Positions 3,101-60,000 of a stretch of DNA of 64,000 nt are shown one piece after another. The stretch comes from Mobula hypostoma (Eukaryota), in contig NC_086097.1 in NCBI RefSeq assembly GCF_963921235.1, positions 682,001 through 746,000 of the forward strand, written 5' to 3'. The notes under the pieces were generated by a model that was not told the DNA's origin, did not search any database, and saw only the letters and a program-made list of their open reading frames with translations. The position numbers and the translations under genes were made by a program. Position 1 is the first letter of the stretch. Every line of letters begins with the position of its first letter.

Positions 3101-3328
3101 ATGCACAAAAGTGCAGGGCATGCTAATGTGCTATAGCAGGGAAGGAGTGGCAAGCATCAAAAGATAGCGACAGTTCACATCTGATGGATGTTTAGCGTAG
3201 AGAACATCAGTTGTTCCTGCACTTGCTATTTACATCTGAAATTATTCACAGTGCCAGGGTTTGACTCTGGGCTCGTTGTGGCTGAATGCAACTGTGGACT
3301 TTTCCCATTTGCTCTGCTCATAGTTTAC

Positions 3329-12600: not shown

Positions 12601-15600
12601 CCTGTGGATGCAGTCCGGAGACCCAGACGGTAGTTTGCCTCCCTGGTGCCAAGGTCCAGGATGTTTCTGATCGTGTCCAAGAGATCCAGAAGTGGGAGGG
12701 AGAGGAGCCAGAGGTCGTGGTACATATAGGTACCAATGACATAGGTAGAAAAAGGGAAGAAGTCCTGAAAGGAGAATATAAGAGTTAGGAAGGGAGTTGA
12801 GAAAAAGGACCGCAAAGGTAGTAATCTCGGGATTACTGACTGTGCTACGCGACAGTGAAAGTAGGAATGCAATGAGGTAAAGGATAAATGCGTGGCTGAG
12901 GGATTGGAGCAGGGGGCAGGGATTCAAGTTTTTGGATCATTGGGACCTCTTTTGGCGCAGGTGTAACCTGTACAAAAAGGATGGGTTACACTTGAATCCT
13001 AGGGGGACCAATATCCTGGCAGGGAGATTTGCGAGGGCTACTGAGGTGACTTTAAACTAGAATGGTTGGGGGGTGGGAATCAAATTAAAGAGACTAGAAG
13101 GGAGGAGGTTAGTTCACAAATAGAGAAAGCTAGCAGACAGTGTGTGAGGGAGGATAGGCAGGTGACAGAGAAGTGGAGCACTCAGACCAAAGATGTAGGG
13201 GACAAGGAAGAAAAAGATAACAAAGTTGTTTGCTCCATTAAGGATAAACAGAGAGTAAGAGGTGGAGAGTTTCTTAAATGCAATTATTTTAAAGCTAGGA
13301 GCATCGTAAGAATGGTGGATGAGCTTAGAGCATGGATTGATACCTGGAAATGTGATGTTGTAGCTATGAGTGAAACATGGTTGCAGGAGGGGTGTGATTG
13401 GCAACTAAATGTTCCAGGATTTCGTTGCATCAGGTGTGATAGAATAGGAGGGGCAAGAGGGGGAGATTTTGCATTGCTAGTCAGAGAAAATATAACAGCG
13501 GTGCTCTGGCAGCATAGATTAGTGGACTCGTCTAGGGAGGCTATTTGGGTGGAATTGAGGAATGCAAAAGGTATAGTGACGCTTAAAGGGGTGTGTTATA
13601 GACCACCTAATGGGGACCGAGAACTGGAGGAGCAAAATTGTAAGAAGATAGCAGATATTTGTAGTAAGCACAAGGTTGTGATTGTGGGAGATTTTAATTT
13701 TCCACACATAGACTGGGAAGCCCATTCTGTAAAAGGGCTGGATGGTTTGGAGATTGTCAAATGTGTGCAAGATAGTTCTTTGCAGCAATACATAAAGGTA
13801 CCAACCAGAGAAGGGGCAGCATTGGATCTCCTATTAGGGAATGAGATAGCGCAGGTGACAGAGGTATGTGTTGAGGAGCACTTCAGGTCCAGTGATCACA
13901 ATGCCATTAGTTTCAATATAATTATGGAGAAGGATAGGACTGGACCCAGGGTTGAGATTTTTGATTGGAGAAAGGCTAACTTTGAGGAGATGCCAAAGGA
14001 TTTAGAAGGAGTGGATTGGGATAATTTGTTTTATGGGAAGGATGTAATAGAGAAATGGAGGTCATTTAAAGGTGAAATTTTGAGGGTACAGGATCTTTAT
14101 GTTCCTGTTAGGTTGAAAGGAAAGGTTAAAAGTTTGAGAGAGCCATGGTTTTCAAGGGATATTGGAAACTTGGTTTGAATAAAGAGAGGGATCTACAATA
14201 AATATAGGCAGCTTGGAGTAAATGAGGTGCTTGAGGAATATAAAGATTGTAAAACGAATCTTAAGAAAGAAATTAGAAAAGCTAAAAGAAGGTATGAGGC
14301 TGCTTTGGCAAGTAAGATGAAAATAAATCCAAAGAGTTTTTACAGTTATATTAATAGCAAAAGGATAGTGAGGGATAAAATTTGTCCCTTAGAGAATCAG
14401 AGTGGACAGCTACGTGCGGAGCCAAAAGAGATGGGGGAGATTTTGAACAATTTCTTTTCTTTGGTATTCATTAAGGAGAAGGATATTGAATTGTGTAAGG
14501 TAAAGGAAACAAGGAGGGTAGTTATGGAAAGTATGATGATTAAAGAAGAGGAAGTACTGGTGCTTTTAAGGAATATAAAGTGGATATGTCTCTAGGTCCG
14601 GACAGGATATTCCTTGAGGGAAATTAGTGAGGAAATAGCAGGGGCTCTGACAGAAATATTTCAAATGTCATTAGAAACAGGGATGGTGCCGGAGGATTGG
14701 CATATTGCTCGTGGTTCCATTGTTTAAAAAGGGTTCTAAGAGTAAACCTAGCAATTATCGGCCTGTGAGTTTGACATCAGTGGTGGGTAAATTGATGGAA
14801 AGTATTCTTAGAGATGGTATATATAATTATCTGGATAGACAGGATCTGATTAGGAACAGTCAACATGGATTTGTGCATGGAAGGTCATGTTTGACAAATC
14901 TTATTGAATTTTTTAATGAAGTTACTAGGAAAGTTGACGAGGGTAAAGCGGTGGATGTTGTCTATATGGACTTCAGTAAGACCTTTGACAAGGTTCCACA
15001 CGGAAGGTTAGTTAGGAAGGTTCAATCGTTAGGCATTGATATCGAAGTAGTAAAATGGATTCAACAGTGGCTGGACGGGAGACGCCAGAGAGTAGTGGTG
15101 GATAACTGTGGGTCAGATTGGAGAACGGTGTGTAGCAGTGTGCCTTAGGGATCTGTATGGGTCCAATGTTGTTTGTCATATACATTAATGATCTGGATGA
15201 TGGGGTGGTAAATTGGATTAGTAAGTATGCAGATGATACTAAGATAGGTGGCGTTGTGGATAATGAAGTAGGTTTTCAAAGCTTGCAGAGAGATTTAGGC
15301 CAGTTAGAAGAGTGAGCTGAAAGATGGCAGATGGAGTTTAATGCTGAAAAATGTGAGGTGCTACATTTTGGTAGGACTAATCAAAATAGGACATACATGG
15401 TAAATGGTAGGGCATTGAAGAATGCAGTAGAACAGAGGGATCTAGGAAAAATTGTGCATAGTTCCTTGAAGGTGGAATCTCATGCGGACAGGGTGGTGAA
15501 GAAAGCTTTTGGTATGCTGGCCTTTGTTAATCAGAGCAGTGAATGAAGGAGTTGGGATGTAATGTTGAAATTGTATAAGGAATTGGTAAGGCCAAATTTG

Positions 15601-18600
15601 GAGTATTGTGTACAGTTCTGGTCACCAAATTATAGGAAAGTTGTCAATAAAATTGACAGAATACAGAGGAGATTTACTAAAATGTTGCCTGGGTTTCATC
15701 TCCTAAGTTACAGAGAAAGGTTGAACAAGTTAGGTCTTTATTCTTTGGAGCGTAGAAGGTTGAGGGGGGACTTGATAGAGGTGTTTAAAATTATGAGGGG
15801 GATTGATAGAGTTGACACGGATAGGCTTTTTCCATTGAGAATGGGGGAGATTCAAACAAGAGGACATGAGTTGAGAGTTAAAGGGCAAAAGTTTAGGGGT
15901 AACATGAGGGGGAACTTCTTTACTCAGAGAGTGGTAGCTGTGTGGAACAAGCTTCCAGCAGAAGTGGTTGAGGCATGTTCGATGTTGTCGTTTAAAGTTA
16001 AATTGGATAGATATATGGACAGGAAAGGAATGGAGGGTTATGGGCCGAGTGCAGGTCGGTGGGACTAGGTGAGTGTAAGAATTCGGTACGGACTAGAAGG
16101 GCCAAGATGGCCTGTTTCCGTGCTGTAATTGTTATATGGTTATATGGTTAAAGAAGAGGAAGTACTAGTGCTTTTAAAGAATATAAAAGTGGATAAGTCT
16201 CCGGGGCCGGACAGGTTATTCACTAGGACCTAGAGGGATGTTAGTGTGGAAATAGCAGTGGCTCTGACAGAAATATTTCAAATGCCATTAGAAATGGGGA
16301 TGGTGCCGAAGGATTGGCGTATTGCTCATGTTGTTCCATTGTTTAAAAACGGTTCTAAGAGTAAACCTAGCAATTATCGGCCTGTGAGTTTGATGTCAGT
16401 GGTGGGTAAATTGATGGAAAGTATTCTTAGAGATGGTATATATAATTATCTGGATAGACAGGGTCTGATTAGGAACAGTCAACATGGATTTGTGCATGGA
16501 AAGTCATGTTTGACAAATCTTATTGCATTTTTTGAAGAGGTTACTGGGAAAGTTGACGAGGGTAAAGCAGTGGATGTTGTCCATATGGACTTCAGTAAGG
16601 CGTTTGACAAGGTTCCACATGGAAGGTTCAATCGCTAGGTATTAATATTGAAGTAGTAAAATGGATTCAGCAGTGGCTGGATGGGAGACACCAGAGAGTA
16701 GTGGTGGATAACTGTTCGTCAGGTTGGAGGCCGGTGACTAGTGGTGTGCCTCAGGGATCTGTACTGGGTCCAGTGTCGTTTGTCATATACATTAATGATC
16801 TGGATGATGGGGTGGTAAATTGGATTAGTAAGTATGCAGATGATACTAAGATAGGTGGAGTTGTGGATAATGAAGTAGGTTTTCAAAGCTTGCAGAGAGA
16901 TTTAGGCCAGTTAGAAGAGTGGGCTGAAAGATGGCAGATGGAGTATAATGCTGATAAATGTGAGCTGCTACATTTTGGTAGGACTAATCAAAACAGGACA
17001 TACATGGTAAATGGTAGGACATTGAAGAATGCAGTAGAACAGAGGGATCTAGGAATAATGGTGCATAGTTCCCTAAAGGTGGAATCTCATTTGGATAGGG
17101 TGGTGAAGAAAGCTTTTGGTATGCTGGCCATTATAAATCAGAACATTGAGTATAGGAGTTGGGATGTAATGTTAAAATTGTACAAGGCATTGGTAAGGCC
17201 AAATTTGGAGTATTGTGTACAGTTCTGGTCACCAATTTATAGGAAAAATGTCAACAAAATAGACTGAGTACAGAGGAGATTTACTGGAATATTACCTGGG
17301 TTTCATCACCTAAGTTACAGAGAAAGGTTGAACAAGCTGGGTCTTTATTCTTTGGAATGTAGAAGGTTGAGGGAGGACTTGATAGAGGTATTTAAAATTA
17401 TGAGGGGGATAGATAGAGTTGACGTGGATAGGCTTTTCCATTGAGAGTGGGGGACATTCAAACAAGAGGACATGAGTTGAGAGTTAAAGGGCAAAAGTTT
17501 AGGGGTAACATGAGGGGGAACTTCCTTACTCAGAGAGTGGTAGCTGTGTGGAACGAGCTTCCAGCAGAAGTGGTTGAGGCAGGTATGATATTGTCACTTA
17601 AAGTTAAATTGGACAGCTATATGGACAGGAAAGGAATGGAGGGTTAAGGGTTGAGTGCAGGTCGGTGGGACTAGGTGAGAGTAAGCATTCAGCACGGAGT
17701 AGGGCCGAGATGGCCTGTTTCTGTGCTGTAATTGTTATATGGTTATATGTTATATTGTTATAAAATTGCTCACAATACTCGAAGTGAGGACCCATCAGTG
17801 CTGTAGAAAGTCTCAACATTACATCCTTGCTTTTATATTCTAGACCTCTTTAAATGAATTCTAACATCACATTTGCCTTCCTCACACCGACTCAACCTGC
17901 AAATTAATGTTGCACACACAAAATGCTGGCAAACTCAGCAGGCCAGACTGCATCTACGGAAAAAAGTACAGTTGAAGTTTTGGGCCAAAACCCTTTTGCA
18001 GGACTGGAGAAAAAAAGCTGAGGAGTAGATCTAAAAGGTGAAGGGAGGGGAGAGAGAACCACCAGGTGATAGGTGAAACCTGGAGCGGGATGGGTGAAGT
18101 AAAGAGCTGGGAAGTTGATTGGTGAAAGAGATAGAAGGTCATGGAAGAAAGAAAAAGGGGAAAGGAACACCAGAGGGTGGAGATGGGTGGGCAAGGAGAT
18201 AAGATGAGAGAGGGAAAAGGGGATGGGAAATGGAAGTGGGGGGGGGGATGTTGGAGGATATTACCAGAAGTTTGAGACATCAATGTTCATGCCATCAGGC
18301 TGGAGGCTACCGAAGTGGTATATAAGGTGTTGTTCCTCCGATCTAAGTGTGGCCTCATCACGACAGTGGAGGAGCCCATGGATGGACATATCAGAATGGG
18401 AATGGGAAGTGGAATTAAAATGGGTGGCCACTGGGAGACCCTGCTTGTTCTAGCAGATGGAGCATAAATGCTCGGCAAAGGCAGTTCCCCCATCCTCCAA
18501 TCACCCTACCAGCCTCCGCGTCCAGCACATAATTCTCCGATACTTCCACCATCTCCAATAGGATCCCATCACCAAGCATGTTTCCCTCCCCTCTCCCCAC

Positions 18601-21600: not shown

Positions 21601-24600
21601 AGTGGATGTTGTCTACATGGACTTCAGTAAGGCCTTTGACAAGGTCCCGCATGGGAGGTTAGTTAGGAAAATTCAGTCGCTAGGTATACATGGAGAGGTG
21701 GTAAATTGGATTAGACATTGGCTCGATGGAAGAAGCCAGAGAGTGGTGGTAGAGAATTGCTTCTCTGAGTGGAGGCCTGTGACTAGTGGTGTGCCACAGG
21801 GATCAGTGCTGGGTCCATTGTTATTTATCATCTATATCAATGATCTGGATGATAATGTGGTAAATTGGATCAGCAAGTTTGCTGATGATACAAAGATTGG
21901 AGGTGTAATAGACAGTGAGGAAGGTTTTCAGAGGGACTTGGACCAGCTGGAAAAATGGGCTGAAAAATGGCAGATGGAGATTAATACTGACAAGTGTGAG
22001 GTATTGCACATTGGAAGGACAAACCAACGTAGAACATACAAGGTTAATGGTAAGGCACTGAGCAGTGCAGTGGAACAGAGGGATCTGGGAATACAGATAC
22101 AAAATTCCCTAAAAGTAGCATCACAGGTAGATAGGGTTGTAAAGAGAGCTTTTGGTACATTGGCCTTTATTAATCAAAGTACTGAGTATAAGAGCTGGAA
22201 TGTTATGATGTGGTTGTATAAGGCATTGGTGAGGCTGAATCTGGAGTATTGTGTTCAGTTTTGGTCACCAAATTACAGGAAGGATATAAATAAGGTTGAG
22301 AGAGTGCAGAGAGGGTTTACAAGGATGTTGCCGGGTCTTGAGAAACTCAGTTACAGAGAAAGGTTGAATAGGTTAGGACTTTATTCCCTGGAGCGTAGAA
22401 GAATGAGGGGAGATTTGATAGAGGTATATAAAATTATGATGGGTATAGATAGAGTGAATGCAAGCAGGCTTTTTCCACTGAGGCAAGGGGAGAAAAAAAC
22501 CAGAGGACATGGGTTAAGGGTGAGGGGGGAAAAGTTTAAAGGGAACATTAGGGGGGTCTTCTTCACACAGAGAGTGGTGGGAGTATGGAATGAGCTGCCA
22601 GGCGAGGTGGTAAATGCGGGTTCTTTTTTAACATTTAAGAATAAATTGGACAGATACATGGATGGGAGGTGTATGGAGGGATATGGTCCGTGTGCAGGTC
22701 AGTGTGATTAGGCAGAAAATGGTTCGGCACAGCCAAGAAGGGCCAAAGGGCCTGTTTCTGTGCTGTAGTTTCTATGGTTCTATGGTAAGCAGGATTTGTG
22801 AACATTTGGAGAGACATACCCTTTGTCAAAGGTAGGTCATGCCTTACAAGCCTGATTGAATTTTTTGAGGATGTGACTAAACACATTTATGAAGGTAGAG
22901 CAGTACATGTAGTGTATATGGATTTCAGCAAGGCGTTTGATAAGGTACCCCATGCAGGGCTTATTGAGAAAGTAAGGAGACATGGAATCCAAGGTGACCT
23001 TGCTTTGTGGATCCAGAATTGACTTGCTCACAGAAGGCAAAGTGTGTTTGTAGACGGATCATATTCTGCATGGAGGTCGGTTACCAGTGGTGTGTCTCAG
23101 GGATCTGTTCTGGGACCCCTTCTATTCGTAATTTTTATAAATGACCTGGATGAGGAAGTGGGGGGAAGGGTTAGTCAATTTGCTGATGACACAAAGGTTG
23201 GGGGTGTTGTGGATAGTGCGGAGGGCTGTCAGAGGTTACAGTGGGACATCAATAGGATGCAAAACTCAGCTGAGAAGTGGCAGATGGAGTTCAACCCAGA
23301 TAAGTGTGAGGTGGTTCATTTTGGTAGGTCAAATATGATGACAGAATATAATATTAATTGTAAGACTCTTGGCAGTGTGGAGTGTCCGAGTCCATAGGAC
23401 ACTGAAAGCTGCTGTGCAGGTTGACTCTGTAGTAAAGAAGGCATACGGTGCATCGGCCTTCATCAATCGTGGGATTGAGTTTAAGAGCCGAGAGGTAATG
23501 TTGCAGCTATATAGGAACCTGGTCAGACCCCACTTGGAGTACTCTGCTCAGTTCTAATCACCTCACTACAAGAAGGACGTGGAAACTATTGAAAGGGTGC
23601 AGAGGAGATTTTCAAGGATGTTGCCTGGATAGGGGAGCATGCCTTATGAGAATAGGTTGAGTGAACTCGGCATTTTCTCCTTGAAGCAGCGGAGGATGAG
23701 AGGTGACCTGATAGAGGTGTACAAGATACTGAGAGGCATTGATCGTGTGGATAGTCAGAGGCTTTCTCCCCAAGGCTGAAATGGCTAACACGAGAGGACA
23801 CAGGTTTAAGGTGCTTGGAAGTAGGTACAGAGAAGATGGCAGGGGTAAGTTTTTCACACAGAGTGGCGAGTGTGTGGAATGGGCTGCCAGCAACGGTGGT
23901 AGAGGTGGATACAATAGGGTCTTTTAAGAGACTCCTGGATAGGTACATGGAGCTTAGGAAAACAGAGGGCTATGGGTAACCTTAGGTAATTTCTAAGTAA
24001 GTACATGTTCGGTACAGCATCGTGGGCCCCAAGGGTCTGTGTTGTACTGTAGATTTTCTGTGTTTTCTATGTTCTATCTTTGCTTTTTTGACCATCTGTC
24101 CTATCCTGAGTCCCTTCATTCTGGTTCCCACCCCCCTGCCAAATTAGTTTAAACCCTCCCCAACAGCTCTAACAAACCTGCCTGCAAGAATATTGTTCCC
24201 CCTCGGGTTTCAGTGCAACCTGTCCCTTTTGTATAGGTCATACTTCCCTCAGAAGAGATCCCAATGATCCAAGAACCTGAAGCCCTTCCCCTGCACCAGC
24301 TTCTCAGCCATGCATTTATCTGCCAAATCATCTTGTTTCTACCCTCGCTAGCACATGGCACAGGTAGCAATCCAGAAATTACTATCCTGAAGGTCCTGCT
24401 CTCAACTTTCTGCCTAGCTCTCTAAATTCTCTCTTCAGGACCTCATTGCTTTTCCTTCCTATGTCATTGCTACCGATATGTACCAAGACATCTGGTCGCT
24501 CTCCCTCCCTCTCTAAATAATGTCGTAGACTACTTTCAAAATGGAGAGAAAATTCAAAAACCTGAGATCCAGAGGGACTTTGGAGTCCTTGTGCAGGATT

Positions 24601-33600: not shown

Positions 33601-36600
33601 GATATGATGGCAGCATTGAGGCAGATCAGATGAGAAGAGGGTACAGAATGGGGTCGACTCAGCACTAGGGAATAGAGTAAAAGGAAACAGAGATGTTCCT
33701 GTTGGCAATGGATGGGAGTGGGGGTACCACCGGGAGATTGATGGGCAGCAGAAATGTGTGGGACCAGTTCAGGGGGAGAGTAGATGGTGGCTGCATTGTG
33801 GAATTACAGACAGTCCTTCCTCACTCACTCTGCAGGAACGTTTGCGATGGTTATACGGCCAAAGTGTTGCGGGCTGTCTCCTGGAACATAAATGTTCATC
33901 AGTCAGTGGTAGGTGCAAGTGCAACAAGACAAAGCACAGACTTCCCCCTCCCAGTGGTCAGAGCCAGTGGTTTTATCCAGTGTCTGCAGCCCAAGGCTAG
34001 CTCCTTGCTCTTGACCAATTCACTTGCCCTCCCCTTCCTCAGCTCCCAGTTCTACCCCAGTCTCTCCAATGTGAAAACTTAGATCGCTCCATGGTCTCAC
34101 AGGACCTGAACTTGTTCTGGTCCACCACCACCCTGATTTCTCTGCAAGCCCCCAAACAAAGAGGCACCTGGTATTCACAAATGTAATAACTAGTGCCAAC
34201 ACCTCCAGTTTAGGAAATTAGCCCTCTGCACCTCTCTCTTCCCTACAATGATCTTTAGGGTGCACCTCTTTGGCCAGGCTTTTGATCCATCTGCCACACT
34301 TCCCCACCTACTCTGTTACACACACCTGTTACTGCTGACCTCTGGTGCCATGCCTTCTCTGCTCCCAGTAAGATCCCAGACAAAGGAGCAGAATTAGGCC
34401 ATTGAGCCCATCGAGTCTGCATCGCTATTCAATCATGGCTGATTTATTATTCCTCTTTATAAGACCATACCCCGTTATAAGACCTTAAGACATTCTCCTG
34501 TCTTCTCCCCATAACCTCTTCACATGCCTACTAATCAAGAACCTATTAACCTCTGTTTTAAGTATGCCCAGAGATAGCCTCCACAGCCATCTGTGGCAAT
34601 GAATTCCACAGATTCACCATCCTCTGACTAAAGAACACAGATCCTTACCCAGCAGGTCCCCCGAGAAGTTGACAGGAAGGATGATGGCGATGGAGAAGAC
34701 ACAGACCACACTGAGGAGAACTAAGATGTGACGCTGGAACGAGAGATACACGATGGCGTCGATTCCGCACTTGTATTGAATTTCATCATCTCTGAGTACA
34801 AACACAGTGGATACAGCTCCAGTTTCACAGACAGCTACAAGAACTGCTATCAGCCCATCCCCTCCCAACACCTCTGCTTCCTCTGCCCTTGTTCCTTCTC
34901 ACCTCATGTTGTGGCTTCTAATGCTCCTCATTCACTCCTACAGAGCCCTGTCACTCGATGTACTCTGCCCAAAATGCTCTCCCTCAGCCCCTTCTTCACC
35001 ACAGCCCCTCACAGCATCCTCCCTCATTTTTAGCAGGGCGCCAGTTCAAAACCATCTGTGTAAACGGAAGCAGGGAGAAAACCTGACATCGACATCACTA
35101 CTGAATGTGAATATTTCACAACGAGCAAGTCAGTGGTTGACTATACTGCCACTTCACAGCCTCCCCAGGGAGGTATAAGGCAGGATAAAAAGGAACAACA
35201 TCCACTTGCAGGGATGACTGCAGCTCCAACACCTCCCATCTTGGATAAAGCAGCATGTTTGATTGTCCACCCCAATCCCAGTTCACCACAAAAAACATTC
35301 CCTCCACTACTGGTGTAGAGTGGTGGTAGAATATACCACCTGCAAAATGCACTGCCGATTTCTAAAAGAACCTCACAAATTCGTAACCTCTATGACCCGT
35401 GATGCAGCGGGAGTGTTTAAAAGAGAGACGATTAATGGAGCAGGTGACGGAGTAGTGGGAGACAGAGTAGGAAGGCTTTGACTTCTGAGGCTTTGGTGAG
35501 CTGAGGAAGAGCTTCACTCCAAGTGAGGTAAGGTTGGGTAAGTTCCTTTAATAAATCTAATTACCTTAAGAGTAGGTAATGGAGGCAGCAGTTAGGGCAA
35601 TTGAGTGCTCCATTTGCAGTATGTGGGAAGTCAGGGCGAGCACAATCGTCCCTGATGATTACACCTGTAAAAGGTGCATCCAGCTGCAGCTCCTGATAAA
35701 CCGAGTTAGGGAGCTGGAGCTGGATGAACTTCGGATCATTCGGGAGGCAGAGGCAGAAATAAACAGGAGTTACAGGGAGATAGTCACCACTAAGAGTCAG
35801 GAGACAGGTAGCTGGGTGACTGTAAAAAGAGGGAAGGGGAATAGACAGAATGAGCAGAGCACTCCTGTGGTTGTTCTCACCAATAATAAGTACATCGTTT
35901 TGGACACTGTTGAGGGGGACGACCTACCAGGGACAAGTTGCAGTGGTTGTGTCTCTAGCACCGAGATGGGACCCTCAACTCAGAAGGGAAGGAGGGAAAA
36001 GAGGAGAGCAGTAGTGATAGCGGATTCGATAGTTAGGGGGACAGATGAGAGGTTCTGTGGAAGAGATCGAGAATCCCAGATGGTCTGTTACATCGCTGGT
36101 ACCAAGGTCCGCAATATCTCGGATCGAGTTCTCGGTATTCTCAAGAGGGAGGGTGAGCAGCCGGATGTTGTGGTCCATGTAGGGACTAATGACATGGGTA
36201 GGAAGAGTGAGGAGGTCCTGAATGGTGAGTTTAGGGAGATAGGTGCCAAGTTAAAGGACAGGACCTCCAGGATAGCAATCTCAGGATTGCTACCAGGGCC
36301 ACGCGCAGGCGGGTTTAGAAATAGTAAGATAGCGCAGATCAACACGTGGCTGAAGACATGGTGCAGGAGGGAGGGCTTCAGATTTATAGATAATTGGGCA
36401 GTTTTCCAGGGAAGATGGGACCTGTTCCGGCGGGACCGTTTACATCTGAACTGGAGGGGGACAAATATTCTTGCAGGTAGGTTTGCTAGAAAGGATCCGG
36501 TGGATTTAAACTAGATACAAGGGGGGAGGGGAACCAGAGTGTAGGAACAGATGTAGGGGAGAAGGAAGAAAAAGAAAATAGTAAAGTTGTTTGCACCGTT

Positions 36601-39600
36601 GGTGATAAACAGAGAGTAAGAGGTGGAAAATTTCTTAAATGCATTTATTTTAATGCTAGGAGCATTATAAGAAAGATGCATGAGCTTAAAGCATGGATTG
36701 ATACCTGGAAGTATGATGTGGTAGCTATTAGTGAAACTTGGTTACAGGCGGGGTGTGATTGGCAACTAAATATTCTTGGATTTAATTGCTTCAGGTGTGA
36801 TAGAATTGGAGGGACAAGAGGGGGAGATGTTGCATTGCTTGTCAGAGAAAATCTTACAGCAGTGCTCTTGCAGGATTGGTTAGAGGGCTCATCTAGGGAG
36901 GCTATTTGGCTGGAATTGAGGAATGGAAAAGGTGTAGTAACACTTATGGTGGTGTATTATAGACCACCAAATGGGGAGCAAGAATTGGAGGAGCAAATTT
37001 GTAAGGAGATAGCAGATATTTGTAGTAAGCACAAGGTTGTGATTGTGGGAGATTTTAATTTTCCACACATAGACTGGGAAGCCCATTCTGTAAAAGGGCT
37101 GGACGGTTTGGAGTTTGTAAAATGTGTGCAGGAAAGTTGTTTGCAGCAATACATAGAGGTACCAACTGGAGAAGGGGCAGTGTTGGATCTCCTGTTAGGG
37201 AATGAGATAGGTCAGGTGACAGAGGTTTGTGTTGGGGAGCACTTCAGGTCCAGTGATCACAATGTTATTAGTTTCAATATAATTATGGAGAAAGATAGGT
37301 CTGGACCCAGGGTTGAGATTTTTGATTGGAGAAAGGCTAACTTTGAGGAGATGTGAAAGGATTTAGAAGGAGTGGATTGGGACAATTTGTTTTATGGGAA
37401 GGATGTAATAAAGAAATGGAGGTCATTTAAAGGTGAAATTTTAAGGGTACAGGATCTTTATGTTCCTGTTAGGTTGAAAGGAAAGGTTAAAAGTTTGAGA
37501 GAGCCATGGTTTTCAAGGGATATTAGAAATTTGGTTCGAAAAAAGAGATATCTACAATAAATATAGGCAGCATGGAGTAAATGAAGTGCTCGAGGAATAT
37601 AAAGAATGTAAAAAGAATCTTAAGAAAGAAATTAGAAAAGCTAAAAGAAGATATGAGGTTGCTTTGGCAAGTAGGTGAAAATAAATCCCAAAGGTTTCTA
37701 CAGTTATATTAATAGCAAAAGGATAGTGAGGGATAAAATTGGTCCCTTAGTGAATCAGAGTAGTCAGCTATGTGTGGAGCCGAAAGAAATGGGGGAGATT
37801 CTGAACAATTTCTTTTCTCGGTATTCACTAAGGAGAAGGATATTGAATTGTGTAAGATAAGGGAAACAGGTAGGGAAGTTATGGAAACTATGATGATTAA
37901 AGAAGAGGAAGTACTGGTGCTTATAAGAAATATAAAAGTGGATAAGTCTCCGGGTCCTGAAAGGATATTCCCTCGGACCTTGAGGGAAATTAGTGTGGAA
38001 ATAGCAGGGCCTCTGACAAGGTCATGTTTGACAAACCTTATTGAATTTTTTGAAGAGGTTACCAGGAAAGTTGACGAGGGTAAAGCGGTGGATGTTGTCT
38101 GTATGGACTTCAGTAAGACCTTTGACAAGGTTCCACATGGAAAGTTAGTTAGGAAGGTTCAATCGTTAGGTATTAATATTGAAGTAGTAAAATGGATTCA
38201 ACAGTGGCTGGATGGGAGACGCCAGAGAGTAGTGGTGGATAACTGTTTGTCAGATTGGAGCCCAGTGACTAGTGGTGTGCCTCAGGGATATGTACTGGGT
38301 CCAATGTTGTTTGTCATATACATTAATGATCTGGATGATGGGGTGGTAAATTGGATTAGTAAGTATGCAGATGATACTAAGATAGGTGGAGTTGTGGATA
38401 ATGAAGTAGGTTTTCAAAGCTTGCAGAGAGATTTAGGCCAGTTAGAAGAGTGGGCTGAAAGATGGCAGATGGAGTTTAATGCTGATAAATGTGAGGTGCT
38501 ACATTTTGGTAGGACTAATCAAAATAGGACATACATGGTAAATGATAGGGCATTGAAGAATGCAGTAGAACAGAGGGATCTAGGAATAATAGTGCATAAT
38601 TCCTTGAAGGTGGAATCTCATGTGGATAGGATGGTGAAGAAAGCTTTTGGTATGCTGGCCTTTATTAATCAGAGCATTGAGTATAGGAGTTGGGGTGCAA
38701 TGTTGAAATTGTACAAGGCATTAGTGAGGCCAAATTTTGATCATTGTGTACAGTTTTGGTCACCGAATTACAGGAAAGATGTCAACAAAATAGAGAGAGT
38801 ACAGAGAAGATTTACTAGAATGTAACCTGGGTTTCGTCACCTAAGTTACAGAGAAAGGTTGAACAAGTTGGGTCTTTATTATTTGGAACGTAGAAGGTTG
38901 AGGGAGGACTTGATAGAGGGATTTAAAATTATGAGGGGGATAGATAGAGTTGACGTGGATAGGCTTTTTCCATTGAGAGTGGGGGAGATTCAAACAAGAG
39001 GACATGAGTTGAGAGTTAAAGGGCAAAAGTTGAGGGGTAACACGAAGGGGAGCTTCTTTACTCAGAGAGTGGTAGCTGTGTGGAACAAGCTTCTAGCAGA
39101 AGTGGTTGAGGCAGGTTCGATGTTGTCGTTTAAAGTTAAAATTGGACAGCTATATGGACAGGAAAGGAATGGGGGGTTTTGGGCTGAGTGCAGGTCGGTG
39201 GGACTAGGTGAGAGTAAGAGTTCAGCGTGGACTAGAAGGGCTGAGATGGCCTGTTTCCATGCTGTAATTGTTATATAGTTATATGACCAAGGTGGTCATG
39301 GGCAACAGGTGATTAGGAACACCACCATCCACACAGCCATTCCTTCTCACAACATCTTCGAAGATAGAACATAAAACAATCTATCAGAAATCAATCTGTC
39401 AGAAATTCTGTTCCATTTCGCTTGATTATTCTGTTCAAACTGAGACCCAACTGGAGAACTTCTTCCTGTAATTCCTTCTTCTGACACCCAGTCACTATAC
39501 TACATGTTAAATAAGCAGACACTTCATTGGTCACATCATTCTTTCTGAATGTTTGCAGTTTCATTTTTTATTGTTTGTTACCTTAAATGGTTCTTAACCT

Positions 39601-51600: not shown

Positions 51601-54600
51601 GTCTGCTCTGCCATTTTATCATGAGCTGATCCATTCTCCCATTTAGTCCCACTCCCCCACCTTCTCACCATAACCTTAGACGCCCTGGCTACTAGGATAA
51701 ATTGTCGAAGGTTGCAGAGAGACATTGATAGGATGCAAAAGACCATAAGACCATAAGACAGAGGAGCAGAAGTCGGCCATTCGGCCCATCAAGTCTGCTC
51801 CGCCATTTTATCATGAGCTGAATCCATTCTCCCATTTAGTCCCACTCCCCCGCCTTCTCACCATAACCTTTGAAGCCCTGGCTACTCAGATACCTATCAA
51901 TCTCTGCCTTAAATACACCCAATGACTTGGCCTCCACTGCTGCCCGTGGCAACAAATTCCATAGATTCACCACCCGCTGACTAAAAAAATTTCTTCGCAT
52001 TTCTGTTCTGAATGGGCGCCCTTCAATCCTTAAGTCATGCCCTCTCGTACTAGACTCCCCCATCATGGGAAACAACTTTGCCACATCCACTCTGTCCATG
52101 CCTTTCAACAGTCAAAGTATGACTATGACTGTGACTATTCGAAATGTTTCTATGCGGCCTCCCCTCATTCTTCTACACTCCAAGGAGTACAGTCCAAGAG
52201 CGGACAAACGTTCCTCATATGTTAACCCTCTCATTCCCGGAATCATTCTAGTGAGTCTTCTCTGTACCCTCTCCAACATCAGCACATCCTTCCTTAAATA
52301 AGGAGACCAATACTGCCCACAGTACTCTAAGTGAGGTCTCACCAGTGCCTTAAGTGGGCTGAGAAGTGGCAGATGGAGTTCAACCTGGAGAAGTGTGAGG
52401 TGGTACACTTTGGAAGGGCAAACTCCAAGGCAGAGTACAAAGTAAATGGCAGGAAACCTGGTAGTGTGGTGGAGCAAAGGGATCTGGGGGTACACATCCA
52501 CAGATCCCTGAAAGTTGCTTCACAGGTAGATGAGGTAGTTAAGAAAGCTTATGGGGTGTCAGCTTTCATAAGTTGAGGGATAGAGTTTGAGAGTCGCGCG
52601 GTAATAATGTAGCTCCATAAAACTCTGGGTAGGCCACACTTGGAGTACTGTGTCCAGTTCTGGTCGTCTCACTATAGGAAGGATGTGGAAGCATTGGAAA
52701 GGGTACAGAGGAGATTTACCAGGATGCTGCCTGGTTTAGAGAGTATCCCCTCCTCCCCTTTTTCTGCCCTCTTTATCTCTTTTAAAGCACTGAAATCCAG
52801 GAATATTGAGAATCCATTCCTGCCCTGGTGCCAGCCAAGTCTCTGTAATGGCCACTACATCATAATTCCATGTACGTATCCAAGCTCTCAGTTCATCACC
52901 TTTGTTCCTGATGCTTCTTGCATTGAGGTACACACACTTCAGCCCTTCTACCTTACTACCTTTACACCTTTTATTCTGCTTCTCTTTCCTCAAAGCCTCT
53001 CTAAATGTTAGATCTGGCTTTACTCCATGCACTTCTTTCACTGCTCTATCGCTCCGGGTCCCATCCCCCTTGCAAATTAGTTTAAACCCTCCCGAACCAT
53101 GCTAGCAAACCTACCTGCAAGGATATTGCTCCCCCTCGAGTTCAGGTGCAACCCATCCAATCTGTACAGGTCCCACCTTCCCCAGAAGAGATCCCAATGA
53201 TCTAAAAATCTAAAACCCTGCTCCCTGCACCAACTCCTCAGCCACACATTCAACTGCCATCTCCTCCCATTCTTATCATCACTGTCATGTAGCACTGGCA
53301 GCAATCCTGAGAATGCCACCCTTGAGGTCCTGTTCTTCAGCCTTCAGCCTAGTTCCCGAAATTCACACTTCAGGACCTCATCTCTCTTCCTGCCTATGTC
53401 GTTGGTCCCAACATGTATCATGACTTCTGGTTGCTTTCCCTCTCATACCAGGATGTTGTGCACTCGGTCAGAGACATCCCAGACCCTGGCACCCGGGAGG
53501 CAACAAACCATGCGGGTGTCCTTCTCATGTCCACAAAATCTCCTGTCTGCTCCCCTGACTATAGAGTCTCCAATATCGACAGCTCTCCTCTTCTCTGTCC
53601 CACCCTTCTGCACCACAGGGTCAGACTCAATGCCAGAGGCCCTGCCACCATGGCTCATACCTGGTCGGTCGTCCCCATGAACAGTATCCAGGACGGTAAA
53701 CTTATTATTCAGGGGAATGGCTACAGGGGTGCTCTGCATTACCTGTCTGCTCACCTTCCCTTTCCCTCCTCTGACTGTCACCCAACGACCTGCTTCCGAC
53801 AGCCTCGGTCTGACTACTTCCCTGTAGCTCTCATATATGACTGCCTCATTCTCCCTTATGAATCGAAGGTCATCCAGCTGCTCCAGATTCCTTACATGGT
53901 CTTCCAGATCGCCCAGCCGTATGCACTTCTGGCAGATGTGACTCTGTGGGAGAGGGGCGTTCCCCCAAGACTGCCATATCTAACATGAGAGGCACATCAC
54001 CGTCTCAGGAGGCATTGTAAAGACTAACTGCGAGCAAGCCTCTCGAGTCAAAGCCTCAAAGCTCCACTCCTTCGCTGGCCCACTCACTCACTGGCCGCTT
54101 TCCACTTTTCTAGTTTAAGGTTAAATCAGGGGTTGTTGGGTGTTGCTGGGTTTTGCAGCTTGAAGGGCTGAAAGAGCATTTTTCACACTGTATCTCTAAA
54201 TAAAATAAACCACCACAGCCATCTTCCCCTGAATGAGGTATGATTCCAACCAGCAAAGTGATTCTCACTGACTCCAGTTTAACCAGGGCTCGATCAAATG
54301 GTTCTTGGCAGGGAATTGACGAACATAGACCACAAACAGGCGGATGCGCAGTTTAATTTGGCATCAGAGCCAACCCAGATTCCATGGGCCAAAAGGCCTA
54401 CTTCTATTCTATATTGTTCCATAGTCCACGTACAACAGGACATGGATCAACTGGAAAAGTAGACAAGGGAATGGCAGAGAGAGTCTACTTGAGTAAGCAT
54501 GAAATTGTGGGGAAGTTAAACCGGGGAGATCTGAAAGAGAACAGCAGAGCCTTGGGGAGTGATGCTGAACAGAAAGACCTTAACATACAAGTGCATGGAT

Positions 54601-55547: not shown

Positions 55548-55916
55548 CTGAAATCAAGATATAGTCTGGCATTAACATCTCTCCGAACATACACAGGCAT
55601 CAGGCCCTGTAAGTTAGCCCACTGTGACAGGTGATGTCTGAATACCAAGCCAATCCCACTCAAACTGGGCTCAAAACCAAATACAGAATCCAGTATTTAC
55701 CTCACCAACTCAGAATTTCAAATGATTTCATGATCAGGTGATTCAGTATCAAAAGCCAAACTTCTTCACTCAGCAGGTGGTGTGAGAGTGTAACGAACGA
55801 CAGTGGAAGTGGTGGATCTGGGTTCAACTATAACATTTGAGAGCAGCTTGGATAGGTATATAATGGGGGATATAGTTAAAGACAAGGAAGAAGATTAGGT
55901 TGGCATGGACTGAATG

Positions 55917-56250
55917 AAATGAAATGAAATATCTTTATTATCATTGCATAGTACAATTTGTCATGCACCAATACAGCGAAAATGAATTTGCAACTCCCAT
56001 ATTCAATGCTATAAAACAAATAAAATAAATAAACAATAAATAAAATCAAGTAATCAGCCAGTACAACCAGCAACCATAAAACCAGTATTAAAGTAGCAAT
56101 ATAACAAATTTATGGATAATGCTTGATCGATTGGTTCAGAGCAATTATAGCTCTGGGGAAAAAAACTATTTTTCAGTCTGGAATTGCCGGCATAGAAAAT
56201 CTTATAACATCTGCCAGATGGAAGAAGTTCAAACAGATGATTGTATCTGT
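55917..56250 (-). mobile_element. Rex/L2-type LINE 3' end
   Basis: LFELLPSGR...RLKNSFF motif, AATAAA, (CATTT)n tail; TSD TGAATG (55911-55916 and 56251-56256). Confidence 0.7.
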
Positions 56251-57024
56251 TGAATGGGTTGAAGGGCCTGTTTCTGCCTAGTTTTAACTGTCATACATAA
56301 AGTACTGGTCAAGGAGTATAGCTGCTTGTCAAAGACAGTTCCTTCATCACAGATCCACAGAGAAAAGGTGACTTGATCCACTCCTTTAATACGGTTCTGT
56401 CTCCTTGGATCTGTGGGAGAACCTAATAACCGTTTGGTTGTTGTGCTGAACTAACTGCTTCCCTCCACCAGCTCTCGAAAAGCAAATCTACTGGGCTCAA
56501 CCAACTGTGGAGTTTATGAAGGCTTTCTAGGCTTTGCTGAGGAAGACTGGTGCCCAGGCTGATCTCTCTTGTGCCACAGGACAGTTATAGAGAGAGTCAT
56601 AGAGTCACAAAGCGATACCGCACAGTTACAGGCCCTTCATCCCAACTGGACCTTGCTGGCCAGAACCAATTTCCTGCATTTGGCCCATATATCTCATGCG
56701 TTCCTACATGTACCTATCCAAAAACTTTTCAAATGATACTATTGTACTTGTCGCAACCACTTCCTCTGACAGCTCATTCCATATACATTTGATTTCCTCT
56801 TGCTTAGGAAGAGCAATATCCCTAACCTTGCCATCCTTGAACACCCTGCTACCTCTGATTACACACTATGACAGTGCCAGTAGCATTATTTTTCACCCAG
56901 AGAGTTGTGGATCTGTGGAATGCTCTGCCTCAGAAGGCAGTGGAAGCCAATTCTCTGGATGCTTTCAAGAAAGAGTTAGATAGAGCCCTTAAAGATAGTG
57001 GAGTCAAGGGACATGGGGAGAAGG

Positions 57025-60000
57025 ACATGGGACCTCTTCTGGGGCAGGTGGGACCTGTACAAGAGAGACGGGTTACACTTGAACTACAGGGGGACCAATA
57101 TCCTTTCAGGGAGGTTTGTTAGTGCTATTGGGGAGGCTTTAAACTAGATTTGCAGGGGGATGGGAACCAGAGTGCCAGAGCTGACAGTGTGGCTGGGGTG
57201 AAAATAAATGATGTTAAAAGTGCAAGCAAATCCGCAAATACAAAGGTTGTGAGTGGTGGTAAAAATCTTCTGAGGTGTATATATTTCAATGCTAGGAGTA
57301 TTGCGGGGAAGGTGGATGAGTTGAGGGCGTGGATTGACACGTGGAATTATGACGTTATAGCAATTAGTAAAACTTGGCTACAGGAGGGGCAGGACTGGCA
57401 GCTTAATATTCCAGGGTTCCGATGTTTCAGATGTGATCGAGGCAGACGAATGAAAGGTGGGGGAGTAGCATTGCTTGTTAGGGAAAATATTACAGCAGTG
57501 CTCAGGCCGGACAGATTAGAGGGCTTGTCTACTGGGTCCCTATGGGTGGAGCTGAGAAACAGGAAAGCTATGGCCACATTAGTGGGATTGTATTACAGAC
57601 CATCCAATAGTCAACGAGACTTGGAAGAGCAAATCTGCAGAGAGATAGCAGGCAACTGCAGGAAACATAAAGTTGTGGTGGTAGGGGATTTTAATTTTCC
57701 ATATATTGATTGGGATTCCCATACTGTTAGGGGTCTAGATGGTTTAGAGTTTGTAAAATGTGTTCAGGAAAGTTTTCTAAATCAATATATAGAGGGACCA
57801 ATTAGAGGGATTGCAATATTGGATCTCCTGTTAGGAAACGAGTTAGGACAAATGACGGAAGTCTGTGTAGGGGAGCACTTTGGTTCCAGTGATCATAACA
57901 CCATTATTTTCAATTTGATCATGGACAAGGATAGATCTGGTCCTCGGGTTGAGGTTCTGAACTGGAAGAAGGCCAAATTTGAAGAAATGAGAAAGGTTCT
58001 AAAAGGCGTGGATTGGGACAGGTTGTTCTCTGGCAAAGATGTGATCGGTAGGTGGGAAGCCTTCAAAGGAGAAATTTTGAGAGTGCAGAGTTTGTATGTT
58101 CCTGTCAGGATTAAAGGCAAAGTAAATAGGAATAAGGAACCTTGGTTCTCAAGGGATATTGCAACTCTGATAAAGAAGAACAGGGAGTCGTATGAAATGT
58201 ATAGGAAACAGGGAGTAAATCAGGTGCTTGAGGAGTATAAGAAGTGCAAGAAAATACTTAAGAAAGTAATCAGGAGGGCTAAAAGAAGACATGAGGTTGC
58301 CTTGGCAGTCAAAGTGAAGGATAATCCAAAGAGCTTTTACAAGTATATTAAGAGCAAAAGGATTGTAAGGGATAAAATTGGTCCTCTTGAAGATCAGAGT
58401 GGTCGGCTACGTGCGGAACCAAAGGAAATGGGGGAAATCTTAAATAGGTTTTTTGCGTCTGTATTTACTAAGGAAACTGGCATGAAGTCTGTGGAATTAA
58501 GGGAATCAGGTAGTCAGATCATGGAAACTGTACAGATTGAAAAGGAGGAGGTGCTTGCTGTCTTGAGGAAAATTAAAGTGGATAAATCGCCGGGACCTGA
58601 CAGAGTGTTCCCTCGGGCCTTGGAGGAGACTAGTGTTGAAATTGTGGGGGCCCCGGCAGAAATATTTAAAATGTCGCTGTCTACGGATGAGGTGCCGGAG
58701 GATTGGAGAGTGGCTCATGTTGTTCCGTTGTTTAAAAAAGGATCGAAAAGTAATCCGGGAAATTATAGGCCGGTAAGTTTAACATCAGTAGTAGGTAAGT
58801 TATTGGAGGGAGTACTTAGAGACAGAATCTACAAGCATTTGGATAGACAGGGACTTATTAGGGAGAGTCAACATGGCTTTGTGCGTGGTAGGTCATGTTT
58901 GACCAATCTATTGGAGTTTTTCAAGGAGGTTACCAGGAAAGTGGATGAAAGGAAGGCAGTGGATATTGTCTACATGGACTTCAGTAAGGCCTTTGACAAG
59001 GTCCCGCATGGGAGGTTAGTTAGGAAAATTCAGTCGCTAGGTATACATGGCGAGGTGGTAAATTGGATGACATTGGCTCAATGGAAGAAGCCAAAGGGCG
59101 GTAGTAAAGAATTGCTTCTCTTGTGTGGAGGCCTGTGACTAGTTGTATGCCACAGGGATCAGTGCTGGGTCCATTGTTATTTGTCATCTGTATCAATGAT
59201 CTGGATGATAATGTGGTAAATTGGATCAGCAAATTTGCTGATGATACAAAGATTGGAGGTGTAGTAGACAGTGAGGAAGGTTTTCAGAGCCTGCAGAGGG
59301 ATTTGGACCAGCTGGAAAAATGGGCTGAAAAATGGCAGGTGGAGTTTAATACAGACAAGTGTGAGGTATTGCACGTTGGAAGGACAAACCAAGGTAGAAC
59401 ATACAGGGTTAATGGTAAGGCACTGAGGAGTGCAGTAGAACAGAGGGATCTGGGATTATGGATACAAAATTCCCTAAAAGTGGCGTCACAGGTAGATAGG
59501 GTCCTAAAGAGAGCTTTTGGTACATTGGCCTTTATTAATCAAAGTATTGAGTATAAGAGCTAGAATGTTATGATGAGGTTGTATAAGGCATTGGTGAGGC
59601 TGAATCTGGAGTATTGTGTTCAGTTTTGGTCACCAAATTACAGGAAGGATATAAATAAGGTTGAAAGAGTGCAGAGAAGGTTTACAAGGATGTTGCCAGG
59701 ACTTGAGAAACTCAGTTACAGAGAAAGATTGAATAGGTTAGGACTTTATTCCCTGGAGTGTAGAAGAATGAGGGGAGATTTGATAGAAGTATATAAAATT
59801 ATGATGGGTATAGATAGAGTACATGCAAGCAGGCTTTTTCCACTGAGGCAAGGAGAGAAAAAGACCAGAGGACATGGGTTAAGGGTAAGGAGGGAAATGT
59901 TTAAAGGGAACATTAGCGAGGGCTTCTTCACACAGAGAGTGGTGGGAGTATGGAATGAGCTGCCAGACGAGGTGGTAAATGCGGGTTCTTTTTTAACATT

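Follow-up and report, generated by a model that had tools for sequence, protein, structure and literature searches.

The 64,000-nucleotide stretch of the ray Mobula hypostoma treated here (NC_086097.1, positions 682,001 to 746,000; the whole of it is called the window, and coordinates are counted from its first letter) is a nest of fragments of long interspersed nuclear elements (LINEs) on both strands, in which tblastn with one translation of the first open reading frame (ORF1) and two of the second (ORF2) gave matches nearly throughout. Five of these elements close ORF1 with the heptamer T_TTA_AAC and an adjoining stop codon, and this junction probably serves a conserved programmed -1 ribosomal frameshift giving an ORF1-ORF2 fusion, although the slip, the fusion protein and the efficiency are what we infer from the sequence. 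The reference ORF1 of the window is the following:

35576..36514, forward strand: open ORF1 of 312 amino acids, with an ATG at 35579, a coiled-coil region and a Lipase_GDSL_2 esterase, ending GAT TTA AAC TAG

This protein contains an SGNH/GDSL esterase domain (Lipase_GDSL_2, E 5e-12) and matches the PDB entry 4c1b, named 'ORF1-encoded protein' (E 1.4e-24), while the ORF2 translations hold the domains Exo_endo_phos, Exo_endo_phos_2 and RVT_1, that is, an apurinic-type endonuclease and a reverse transcriptase (RT). The nearest ORF1 proteins were found in stingrays (Hemitrygon akajei, 74%), followed by other rays, skates and sharks, and the window copies are 51-65% identical in ORF1 protein by tblastn. 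The ORF2 protein shares 36% identity (E 1e-120) with the endonuclease and RT portion of a barn swallow (Hirundo) protein. ORF1 relatives ending in Leu-Asn (LN) are abundant in birds, which are described as devoid of L2 in a passage of PMC13343379, and the L2-type ORF1 tails (DGLHP..., as in the crystallised zebrafish ORF1 protein, ORF1p) do not end in LN. The elements are filed here as CR1-group LINEs with an esterase-type ORF1, a CR1-versus-L2 placement that is provisional and drawn from indirect evidence. As a separate observation, a (CTATGTT)5 tandem repeat, expected of a CR1-type 3' tail, stands at 10691-10725, just past the stop codon that ends ORF2 in the copy spanning 8064-10655.

The junctions in the window

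The pattern TTTAAACTAR occurs five times in the window as compared with 0.41 expected, and a count of five was reached in none of 100 shuffles. Each of the five sites reads NNT-TTA-AAC-stop and closes an esterase-type ORF1, with ORF2 in the -1 frame. Their features are as follows:

12463..13060, forward strand: 3' part of the esterase ORF1 of copy 1, in three frameshifted tblastn pieces, ending ..EVTLN and the stop
13045..14178, forward strand: -1 frame start of ORF2 of copy 1, running into the endonuclease with no Met before NARS
13051..13060, forward strand: heptamer T_TTA_AAC (13051-13057) and ORF1 stop TAG (13058-13060) of copy 1
13068..13073, forward strand: G6 run, 10 nt past the copy 1 heptamer
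36490..37356, forward strand: -1 frame start of ORF2 of copy 2, with endonuclease
36505..36514, forward strand: heptamer and stop TAG of copy 2
36521..36526, forward strand: G6 run, 9 nt past the copy 2 heptamer
57028..57147, forward strand: 3' remnant of ORF1 in a 5'-truncated copy, ending GCT TTA AAC TAG (heptamer 57138-57144, stop 57145-57147)
57123..59138, forward strand: -1 frame ORF2, open over 671 amino acids (endonuclease and start of the RT), its first Met lying within the endonuclease
57155..57159, forward strand: G5 run, 10 nt past the heptamer at 57138
52724..53101, reverse strand: -1 frame start of ORF2 of copy 4, truncated
53065..53069, reverse strand: G5 run, 10 nt past the copy 4 heptamer
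53077..53086, reverse strand: heptamer (53086-53080) and stop TAA (53079-53077) of copy 4
53077..54024, reverse strand: ORF1 homology of copy 4, query residues 1-304 at 54% identity, ending ..REGLN and the stop
24131..24136, reverse strand: G6 run, 10 nt past the copy 5 heptamer
24144..24153, reverse strand: heptamer (24153-24147) and stop TAA (24146-24144) of copy 5

An earlier note on this DNA had located these five sites, and they were recovered where it placed them (13051, 36505 and 57138 on the forward strand, 53086 and 24153 on the reverse strand) and in the phase it described, the last ORF1 codons being ACT, GAT, GCT, GGT and GGT, followed by TTA AAC and then by TAG or TAA. The G-rich tract that it reported downstream is present in all five as a G5-6 run, 9-10 nt past the heptamer and 6-7 nt past the stop, and the -1 frame, which opens two codons (13051) or five codons (the other four) before TTT, was found as described to reach the endonuclease (..Y[FL]NARSI..) without a Met wherever ORF2 is retained, which is the case in four copies. 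The junction of the copy at 24153 is intact, yet its ORF1 carries in-frame stops and no ORF2 homology was found downstream.

The claim that every intact junction has the heptamer stood for all five non-decayed junctions, but two further remnants, with frames read by eye and by mismatch search, lack it:

6183..6203, reverse strand: decayed junction remnant of an old degenerate copy, with TCTAAGC at the heptamer place and the stop lost, reading GGTCTAAGCAAATTTGGCAGG
6675..6695, forward strand: decayed junction remnant of a 5'-truncated old copy, with TTTGAAT GAA, the stop lost and the G5 kept, reading TTTGAATGAATTTGGCGGGGG

Both lie in stop-riddled copies and carry two heptamer changes each, so that the intact site is seen at five of the seven recognisable junction remnants in the window; by tblastn, ORF1 C-termini were detectable only at the five intact sites. 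Since the two decayed copies have lost both heptamer and stop, the motif evidently decays in the absence of selection and is not mutationally protected.

Nucleotide-level conservation of the heptamer

Two additional junctions were obtained by a profile scan of metagenome contigs, which returned 11 loci. In the first of these (L001), ORF1 is 32% identical and ends CAT TTA AAC TAG, the endonuclease following in the -1 frame (GGPEAFKLERKGGEN...IKCIYLNARS); in the second (L006), a decayed ORF1 of 24% identity with a bird/turtle-like tail (..RLADLVNHALN) ends GCT TTA AAC TAA, again with the endonuclease in the -1 frame. The canonical X_XXY_YYZ heptamer is consequently present in ORF1 phase at seven of seven non-decayed junctions (five from the window, L001 and L006), at all of which ORF2 lies in the -1 frame, with an upstream stop 3-6 codons before TTT. 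Two other loci were left uncounted as frameshifted decayed copies (L002, which shows GCTTTTAAAAAAAGG at the expected place, and L003), as were L004, L005 and L007-L011, which are not LINE junctions. A scan of genome contigs with the ORF1 profile returned only 4 bacterial SGNH hydrolases, and none of 47 pattern matches in a viral contig scan was confirmed.

The last 40 ORF1 codons were compared among six copies, namely the five of the window and L001. The terminal Leu is encoded by TTA in all six, a codon whose share of Leu codons is 12% in the CR1 ORFs of the window and 15% in L001, and the Asn by AAC in all six, against an AAC share of 22.5% in the window CR1 ORFs. The codon before TTA specifies Thr, Asp, Ala, Gly, Gly or His, and its third base is T throughout (background 30% in window ORFs, 15% in L001), whereas the other Leu columns of the same stretch that are invariant in amino acid use 2-3 different codons. 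The fixation of the minor codons TTA and AAC, together with the fixed T in a variable codon, bears out the earlier assertion that conservation acts on the nucleotides rather than on the peptide.

When the seven junctions were aligned without gaps over 179 columns (119 nt upstream and 60 nt downstream), only two invariant runs of at least 3 nt emerged, TTTAAACTA (9 nt, 0 to +8) and GGGGG (+17 to +21), while 17.6% of the upstream coding columns were invariant, no run of them exceeding 2. Synonymous freedom within the heptamer was looked for and found in none of these seven junctions, which come from three deep lineages. These figures bear on chance or the plain shared ancestry of young copies, by which the five sites, being related repeats of families that share sequence by descent, might resemble one another for no functional reason. 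Such an explanation appears extremely improbable: the window copies are merely 51-65% identical in ORF1 protein; L001 and L006, at 24-32% identity and with 18% of upstream columns invariant, still share nine invariant nucleotides in a row; the site is lost in old copies; and the count of five stands against 0.41 expected.

The junction of copy 2 was further compared with contigs placed on 36330-36730 at 80% likeness, of which 4296 and 3493 came from DNA runs of two species (organisms A and B), and 268 and 146 from two probable RNA runs. Alternative letters at a level of at least 5% occur at 36499 and 36519 and nowhere between, among the rows listed (22 weaker rows fall outside them), and the interval 36500-36518, for which none is listed, includes heptamer and stop together with four further bases; no insertions or deletions are listed across 36330-36730. 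Seven loose-end consensi, which represent other subfamilies, extend through the junction; all seven have TTTAAAC, followed by TAG or TAA in six and by CAA in one, and short contigs of the two probable RNA runs span the junction without interruption. The strongest subfamily divergence was observed in the approximately 15 nt before the heptamer (36485-36500), where hundreds of contigs leave the alignment, to resume at the heptamer.

A further regularity concerns the stop that closes the -1 frame upstream. It lies exactly 6 codons before TTT in six of the seven junctions, though the surrounding sequence differs, and 3 codons before it in the 13051 copy; it is TAG in the window copies (13042-13044, 36487-36489, 57120-57122 and the matching reverse-strand places) and TGA in L001 (1107-1109) and L006 (3157-3159). 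Its fixed position is possibly selected.

Relatives at the protein level

Of the 51 relatives found for the window ORF1 protein, which are of the elasmobranch type, 32 have an LN terminus; most of the others are truncated or chimeric, and the remaining ends include TIN in one skate protein and LLK in one lizard protein. A profile search of 1.84 billion protein representatives gave 7548 matches, of which 150 were listed, 94 with a recognisable C-terminal region; among those 94 listed representatives, 45 end in LN, 9 in QGN and 60 in N. The LN-ending clusters are named from a snake, Anolis, Varanus, two turtles, the barn swallow and Acipenser. In a search with the swallow protein, 91 of the 120 matches listed, from many bird orders and a turtle, end in LN, and most of the other 29 stop short of the C-terminal region; LD, SN, LS and LI are the ends of the four that extend into it. 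Taken together, the named sources of ORF1 relatives are rays, skates, sharks, Acipenser, Anolis, Varanus, a snake, turtles and many bird orders.

Among 52 LN-ending representatives, position -3 is taken in 2 by a residue that no NNT codon encodes (one of K, E, Q, M and W), whereas at positions -4 to -12 such residues account for 79 of 468 (Fisher p 0.014). Moreover, a gene model of the crane (Grus) reads the -1 frame as ..SFKLGSKGEGDN.., which implies that the same TTT-AAA-CTN and G-rich stretch exists in birds. Four gene models in which ORF1 is joined to an endonuclease (P0009, P0218, P0341 and P0344) were considered as natural fusions and set aside as mutated copies or products of model building; they served solely for reading the peptide of the -1 frame.

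The QGN-ending esterase ORF1 proteins form a group of their own (P0103, P0111, P0112, P0115, P0116, P0118, P0119, P0143 and P0166), and this end could encode another canonical heptamer, G_GGA_AAC.

Proposed mechanism and alternative explanations

Since the heptamer is canonical, phase-locked and fixed against codon usage at the place where alone the -1 frame is open, tandem -1 slippage is the simplest account of the junctions. The end of ORF1 would act as a recoding module composed of U_UUA_AAC, UAG or UAA, 6-7 nt and a G5-6 run. The majority of ribosomes would decode Leu-Asn and terminate to yield ORF1p, whereas in a minority the P-site tRNA-Leu and the A-site tRNA-Asn would jointly slip one base back, onto UUU and AAA. 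For the slipped ribosomes, CUA (Leu) would be the next codon, and translation would proceed in the -1 frame, first across a variable linker and then over the endonuclease and RT. The predicted product is an ORF1p-ORF2p fusion (...x-L-N-L-...) made at a low ORF2:ORF1 ratio, as with retroviral Gag-Pol. The lack of synonymous freedom in the heptamer and of a conserved ORF2 start lends support to the esterase-endonuclease-RT fusion that the earlier note had proposed.

What the heptamer might owe to functions other than decoding was also considered. The nonamer could be kept as an RNA or cDNA cis-element bound by ORF1p or ORF2p, or through a requirement for a C-terminal Leu-Asn in ORF1p, with ORF2 reached by internal entry. 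Conservation of the LN terminus is indeed apparent in the proteins, binding to the G tract is conceivable, and an internal ribosome entry site upstream of the mouse L1 ORF2 is reported in a passage of PMC3592465. Nevertheless, this explanation is judged very unlikely, as a peptide constraint fixes neither the minor codons nor the third base of a variable codon, and a frame-independent cis-element needs neither the exact phase of the ORF1 stop nor a -1 frame that opens 2-5 codons upstream, both of which hold at seven of seven junctions.

The sole conserved feature downstream is the G5-6 run that lies 9-10 nt past the heptamer. The -1 frame peptide at this tract is G-x-G-N/D in the ray and in the bird (Grus) model and G-G-E-N in L001; the decayed L006 has L-G-V-R in its place, with the G runs kept. 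The G tract may be an RNA signal. If it is instead the peptide that is conserved, -1 translation would have to begin no more than a few codons away from the ORF1 stop, which frameshifting and reinitiation need alike. Possible stimulators are the stop codon next to the heptamer and the G tract; the latter might be a linear element to which a protein binds or might, though only in some of the copies, form a two-tetrad quadruplex.

Several observations weigh against frameshifting at these junctions. No conserved stem-loop or pseudoknot was found, six 120-nt folds having z-scores of +0.83, -1.20, +1.43, -2.20, +0.58 and +1.27, spread about zero and not consistently better than shuffles, and the consensus fold of the alignment, at -0.52 kcal/mol, comprised 2 pairs and showed no covariation; the single-sequence and consensus folds thus agree with the earlier note, which had seen no convincing pseudoknot. 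G-quadruplex folding, which that note had named as a check, proved not to be general, with a two-tetrad motif at four of seven junctions and a three-tetrad motif at none. The spacer before the G run is longer than the 5-9 nt usual for structured frameshift stimulators, and the tract may equally be kept as coding sequence for the G-x-G-N/D peptide. The depletion of K, E, Q, M and W is also seen at -6, -7 and -10, may reflect helix periodicity and constitutes a weak test. The sequences compared share ancestry, so that per-sequence probabilities are not independent. Finally, L006 carries a TAATG whose ATG lies in the -1 frame, as in the coupling described for SART1 in a passage of PMC3708506.

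Two candidates for the stimulator were discarded. A pseudoknot was dropped because the single-sequence, G-quadruplex-allowing and consensus folds gave nothing conserved, and a G-quadruplex as a general stimulator because its two-tetrad motif is confined to four of the seven junctions.

The same observations bear on termination-reinitiation or non-AUG initiation at the ORF1 stop, by which a 40S subunit would restart nearby in the -1 frame to give a separate ORF2p, with TTTAAACTA and the G tract acting as tethering or restart signals. This alternative is considered unlikely. A frameshift-type structure is missing at the junctions, ATT stands in two window copies at the place of the L006 ATG, and the G tract often contains GGGA or UGGGA, which resembles the 18S-complementary motif of caliciviruses; the known tethering motifs for reinitiation, however, lie upstream of the stop and are not known downstream of it. 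Comparison of the seven junctions for a conserved in-frame ORF2 start showed that an AUG, or a UAAUG-type start overlapping or adjoining the ORF1 stop, is absent from six, L006 alone having an ATG, as TAATG, and that no near-cognate start is common to them. Nor does termination-reinitiation predict a phase-locked X_XXY_YYZ, fixed minor codons or a fixed T in a variable codon. The UAAUG coupling of SART1 (PMC3708506, in the passage already cited) speaks in its favour, as does the L006 TAATG. In L006, the heptamer and the TAATG stop-start overlap occur together at 3175-3186.

A wider proposal builds on the -1 frameshift and is offered tentatively, as a possibility that is rather to be doubted: the dominant LINE group of non-mammalian vertebrates would make its ORF1p-ORF2p fusion through a structure-less -1 module (U_UUA_AAC, stop, 6-7 nt, G5-6) that predates the split of rays and birds, and the stimulator would be the G tract, to which either a host factor or a protein of the element itself would bind.

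Comparison with known systems

The heptamer U_UUA_AAC and its phase are identical to those of coronavirus ORF1a/1b. In coronaviruses, a pseudoknot follows a few nucleotides downstream and the 0-frame stop is not adjacent, whereas the stop is adjacent in the CR1 junctions and no pseudoknot was found there. A closer layout is provided by the alpharetroviruses (Rous sarcoma virus, RSV, and avian leukosis virus, ALV), whose gag-pol site is A_AAU_UUA with the gag stop UAG directly after it. In both systems, the upstream gene closes with a tandem-slip heptamer as its final two sense codons and with the stop adjoining, and a low-ratio fusion of structural protein and polymerase is made in the virus and would be made, judging from sequence, in the LINE. 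RSV frameshifting needs a downstream stem-loop or pseudoknot; the CR1 junctions differ in having no conserved helix, and they belong to a non-LTR LINE (one without long terminal repeats) whose upstream protein is an esterase-type ORF1p instead of Gag. With respect to the lack of a helix, the junctions are comparable to the protein-stimulated frameshifting of arteriviruses, which relies on a linear C-rich motif about 11 nt downstream: both have a short conserved linear tract at about 10 nt, although that of CR1 is G-rich and may be conserved as coding sequence. As for efficiency, ALV gag-pol frameshifting is reported to succeed 5-10% of the time.

Among non-LTR elements, a -1 frameshift is stated for ORF2 of the Dictyostelium elements TRE5-A and TRE3-A in a passage of PMC5911963, so that the idea is not new for LINEs as a class, but these elements differ from CR1 in both clade and host. 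SART1 and L1 resemble the elements studied here in that their RNA is bicistronic and the expression of ORF2 is linked to where ORF1 ends (PMC3708506); their mode yields a separate ORF2p and needs no slippery heptamer, in contrast to the CR1 junctions, of which six of seven lack an AUG. The attribution of termination-reinitiation to L1 in the earlier note agrees with that source.

No description of the slip site in CR1, or of a comparable site in vertebrate CR1, was found in the full-text literature searched, the founding chicken, turtle and fugu CR1 papers being outside the reach of these searches. In the accessible part of a 2016 review of frameshifting, HeT-A is the sole non-LTR element mentioned, and a 2026 survey of the CR1 group contains none of the words frameshift, overlap, slippery and translation. 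The way in which ORF2 is translated from a bicistronic LINE RNA is a long-standing question, the mechanism in non-LTR elements being called 'not clear' in a passage of PMC3708506, and a conserved slip site gives it a concrete and testable mechanism. If the frameshift is real, an ORF1p-ORF2p fusion would explain stoichiometry and co-assembly, as Gag-Pol does in retroviruses, and vertebrate genomes would hold a deeply conserved case of -1 frameshifting that dispenses with the usual RNA structure. Should the G tract act as stimulator, the Gag-Pol strategy would be found in a LINE together with a new kind of frameshift stimulator in a cellular context. CR1-group elements are the main LINEs of birds and reptiles. 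They are given as 22-34% of shark and ray genomes in the cited portion of PMC13343379.

Additional observations

The protein searches also brought to light several misattributed sequences. Two CR1 ORF1 esterases are labelled 'SGNH/GDSL hydrolase family protein' of Pseudomonas aeruginosa and Klebsiella pneumoniae (P0013 and P0332, on contigs of 4159 and 2932 bases), and look like vertebrate DNA contaminating bacterial assemblies. Five further entries (P0029, P0053, P0054, P0096 and P0125), in which a CR1 ORF1 esterase is combined with host-gene names (a ribosomal protein S24 isoform, transmembrane protein 204 isoforms) or with long unrelated N-terminal parts, are likely annotation chimeras. In the window itself, an (AG)45 microsatellite lies between LINE fragments at 10935-11025.

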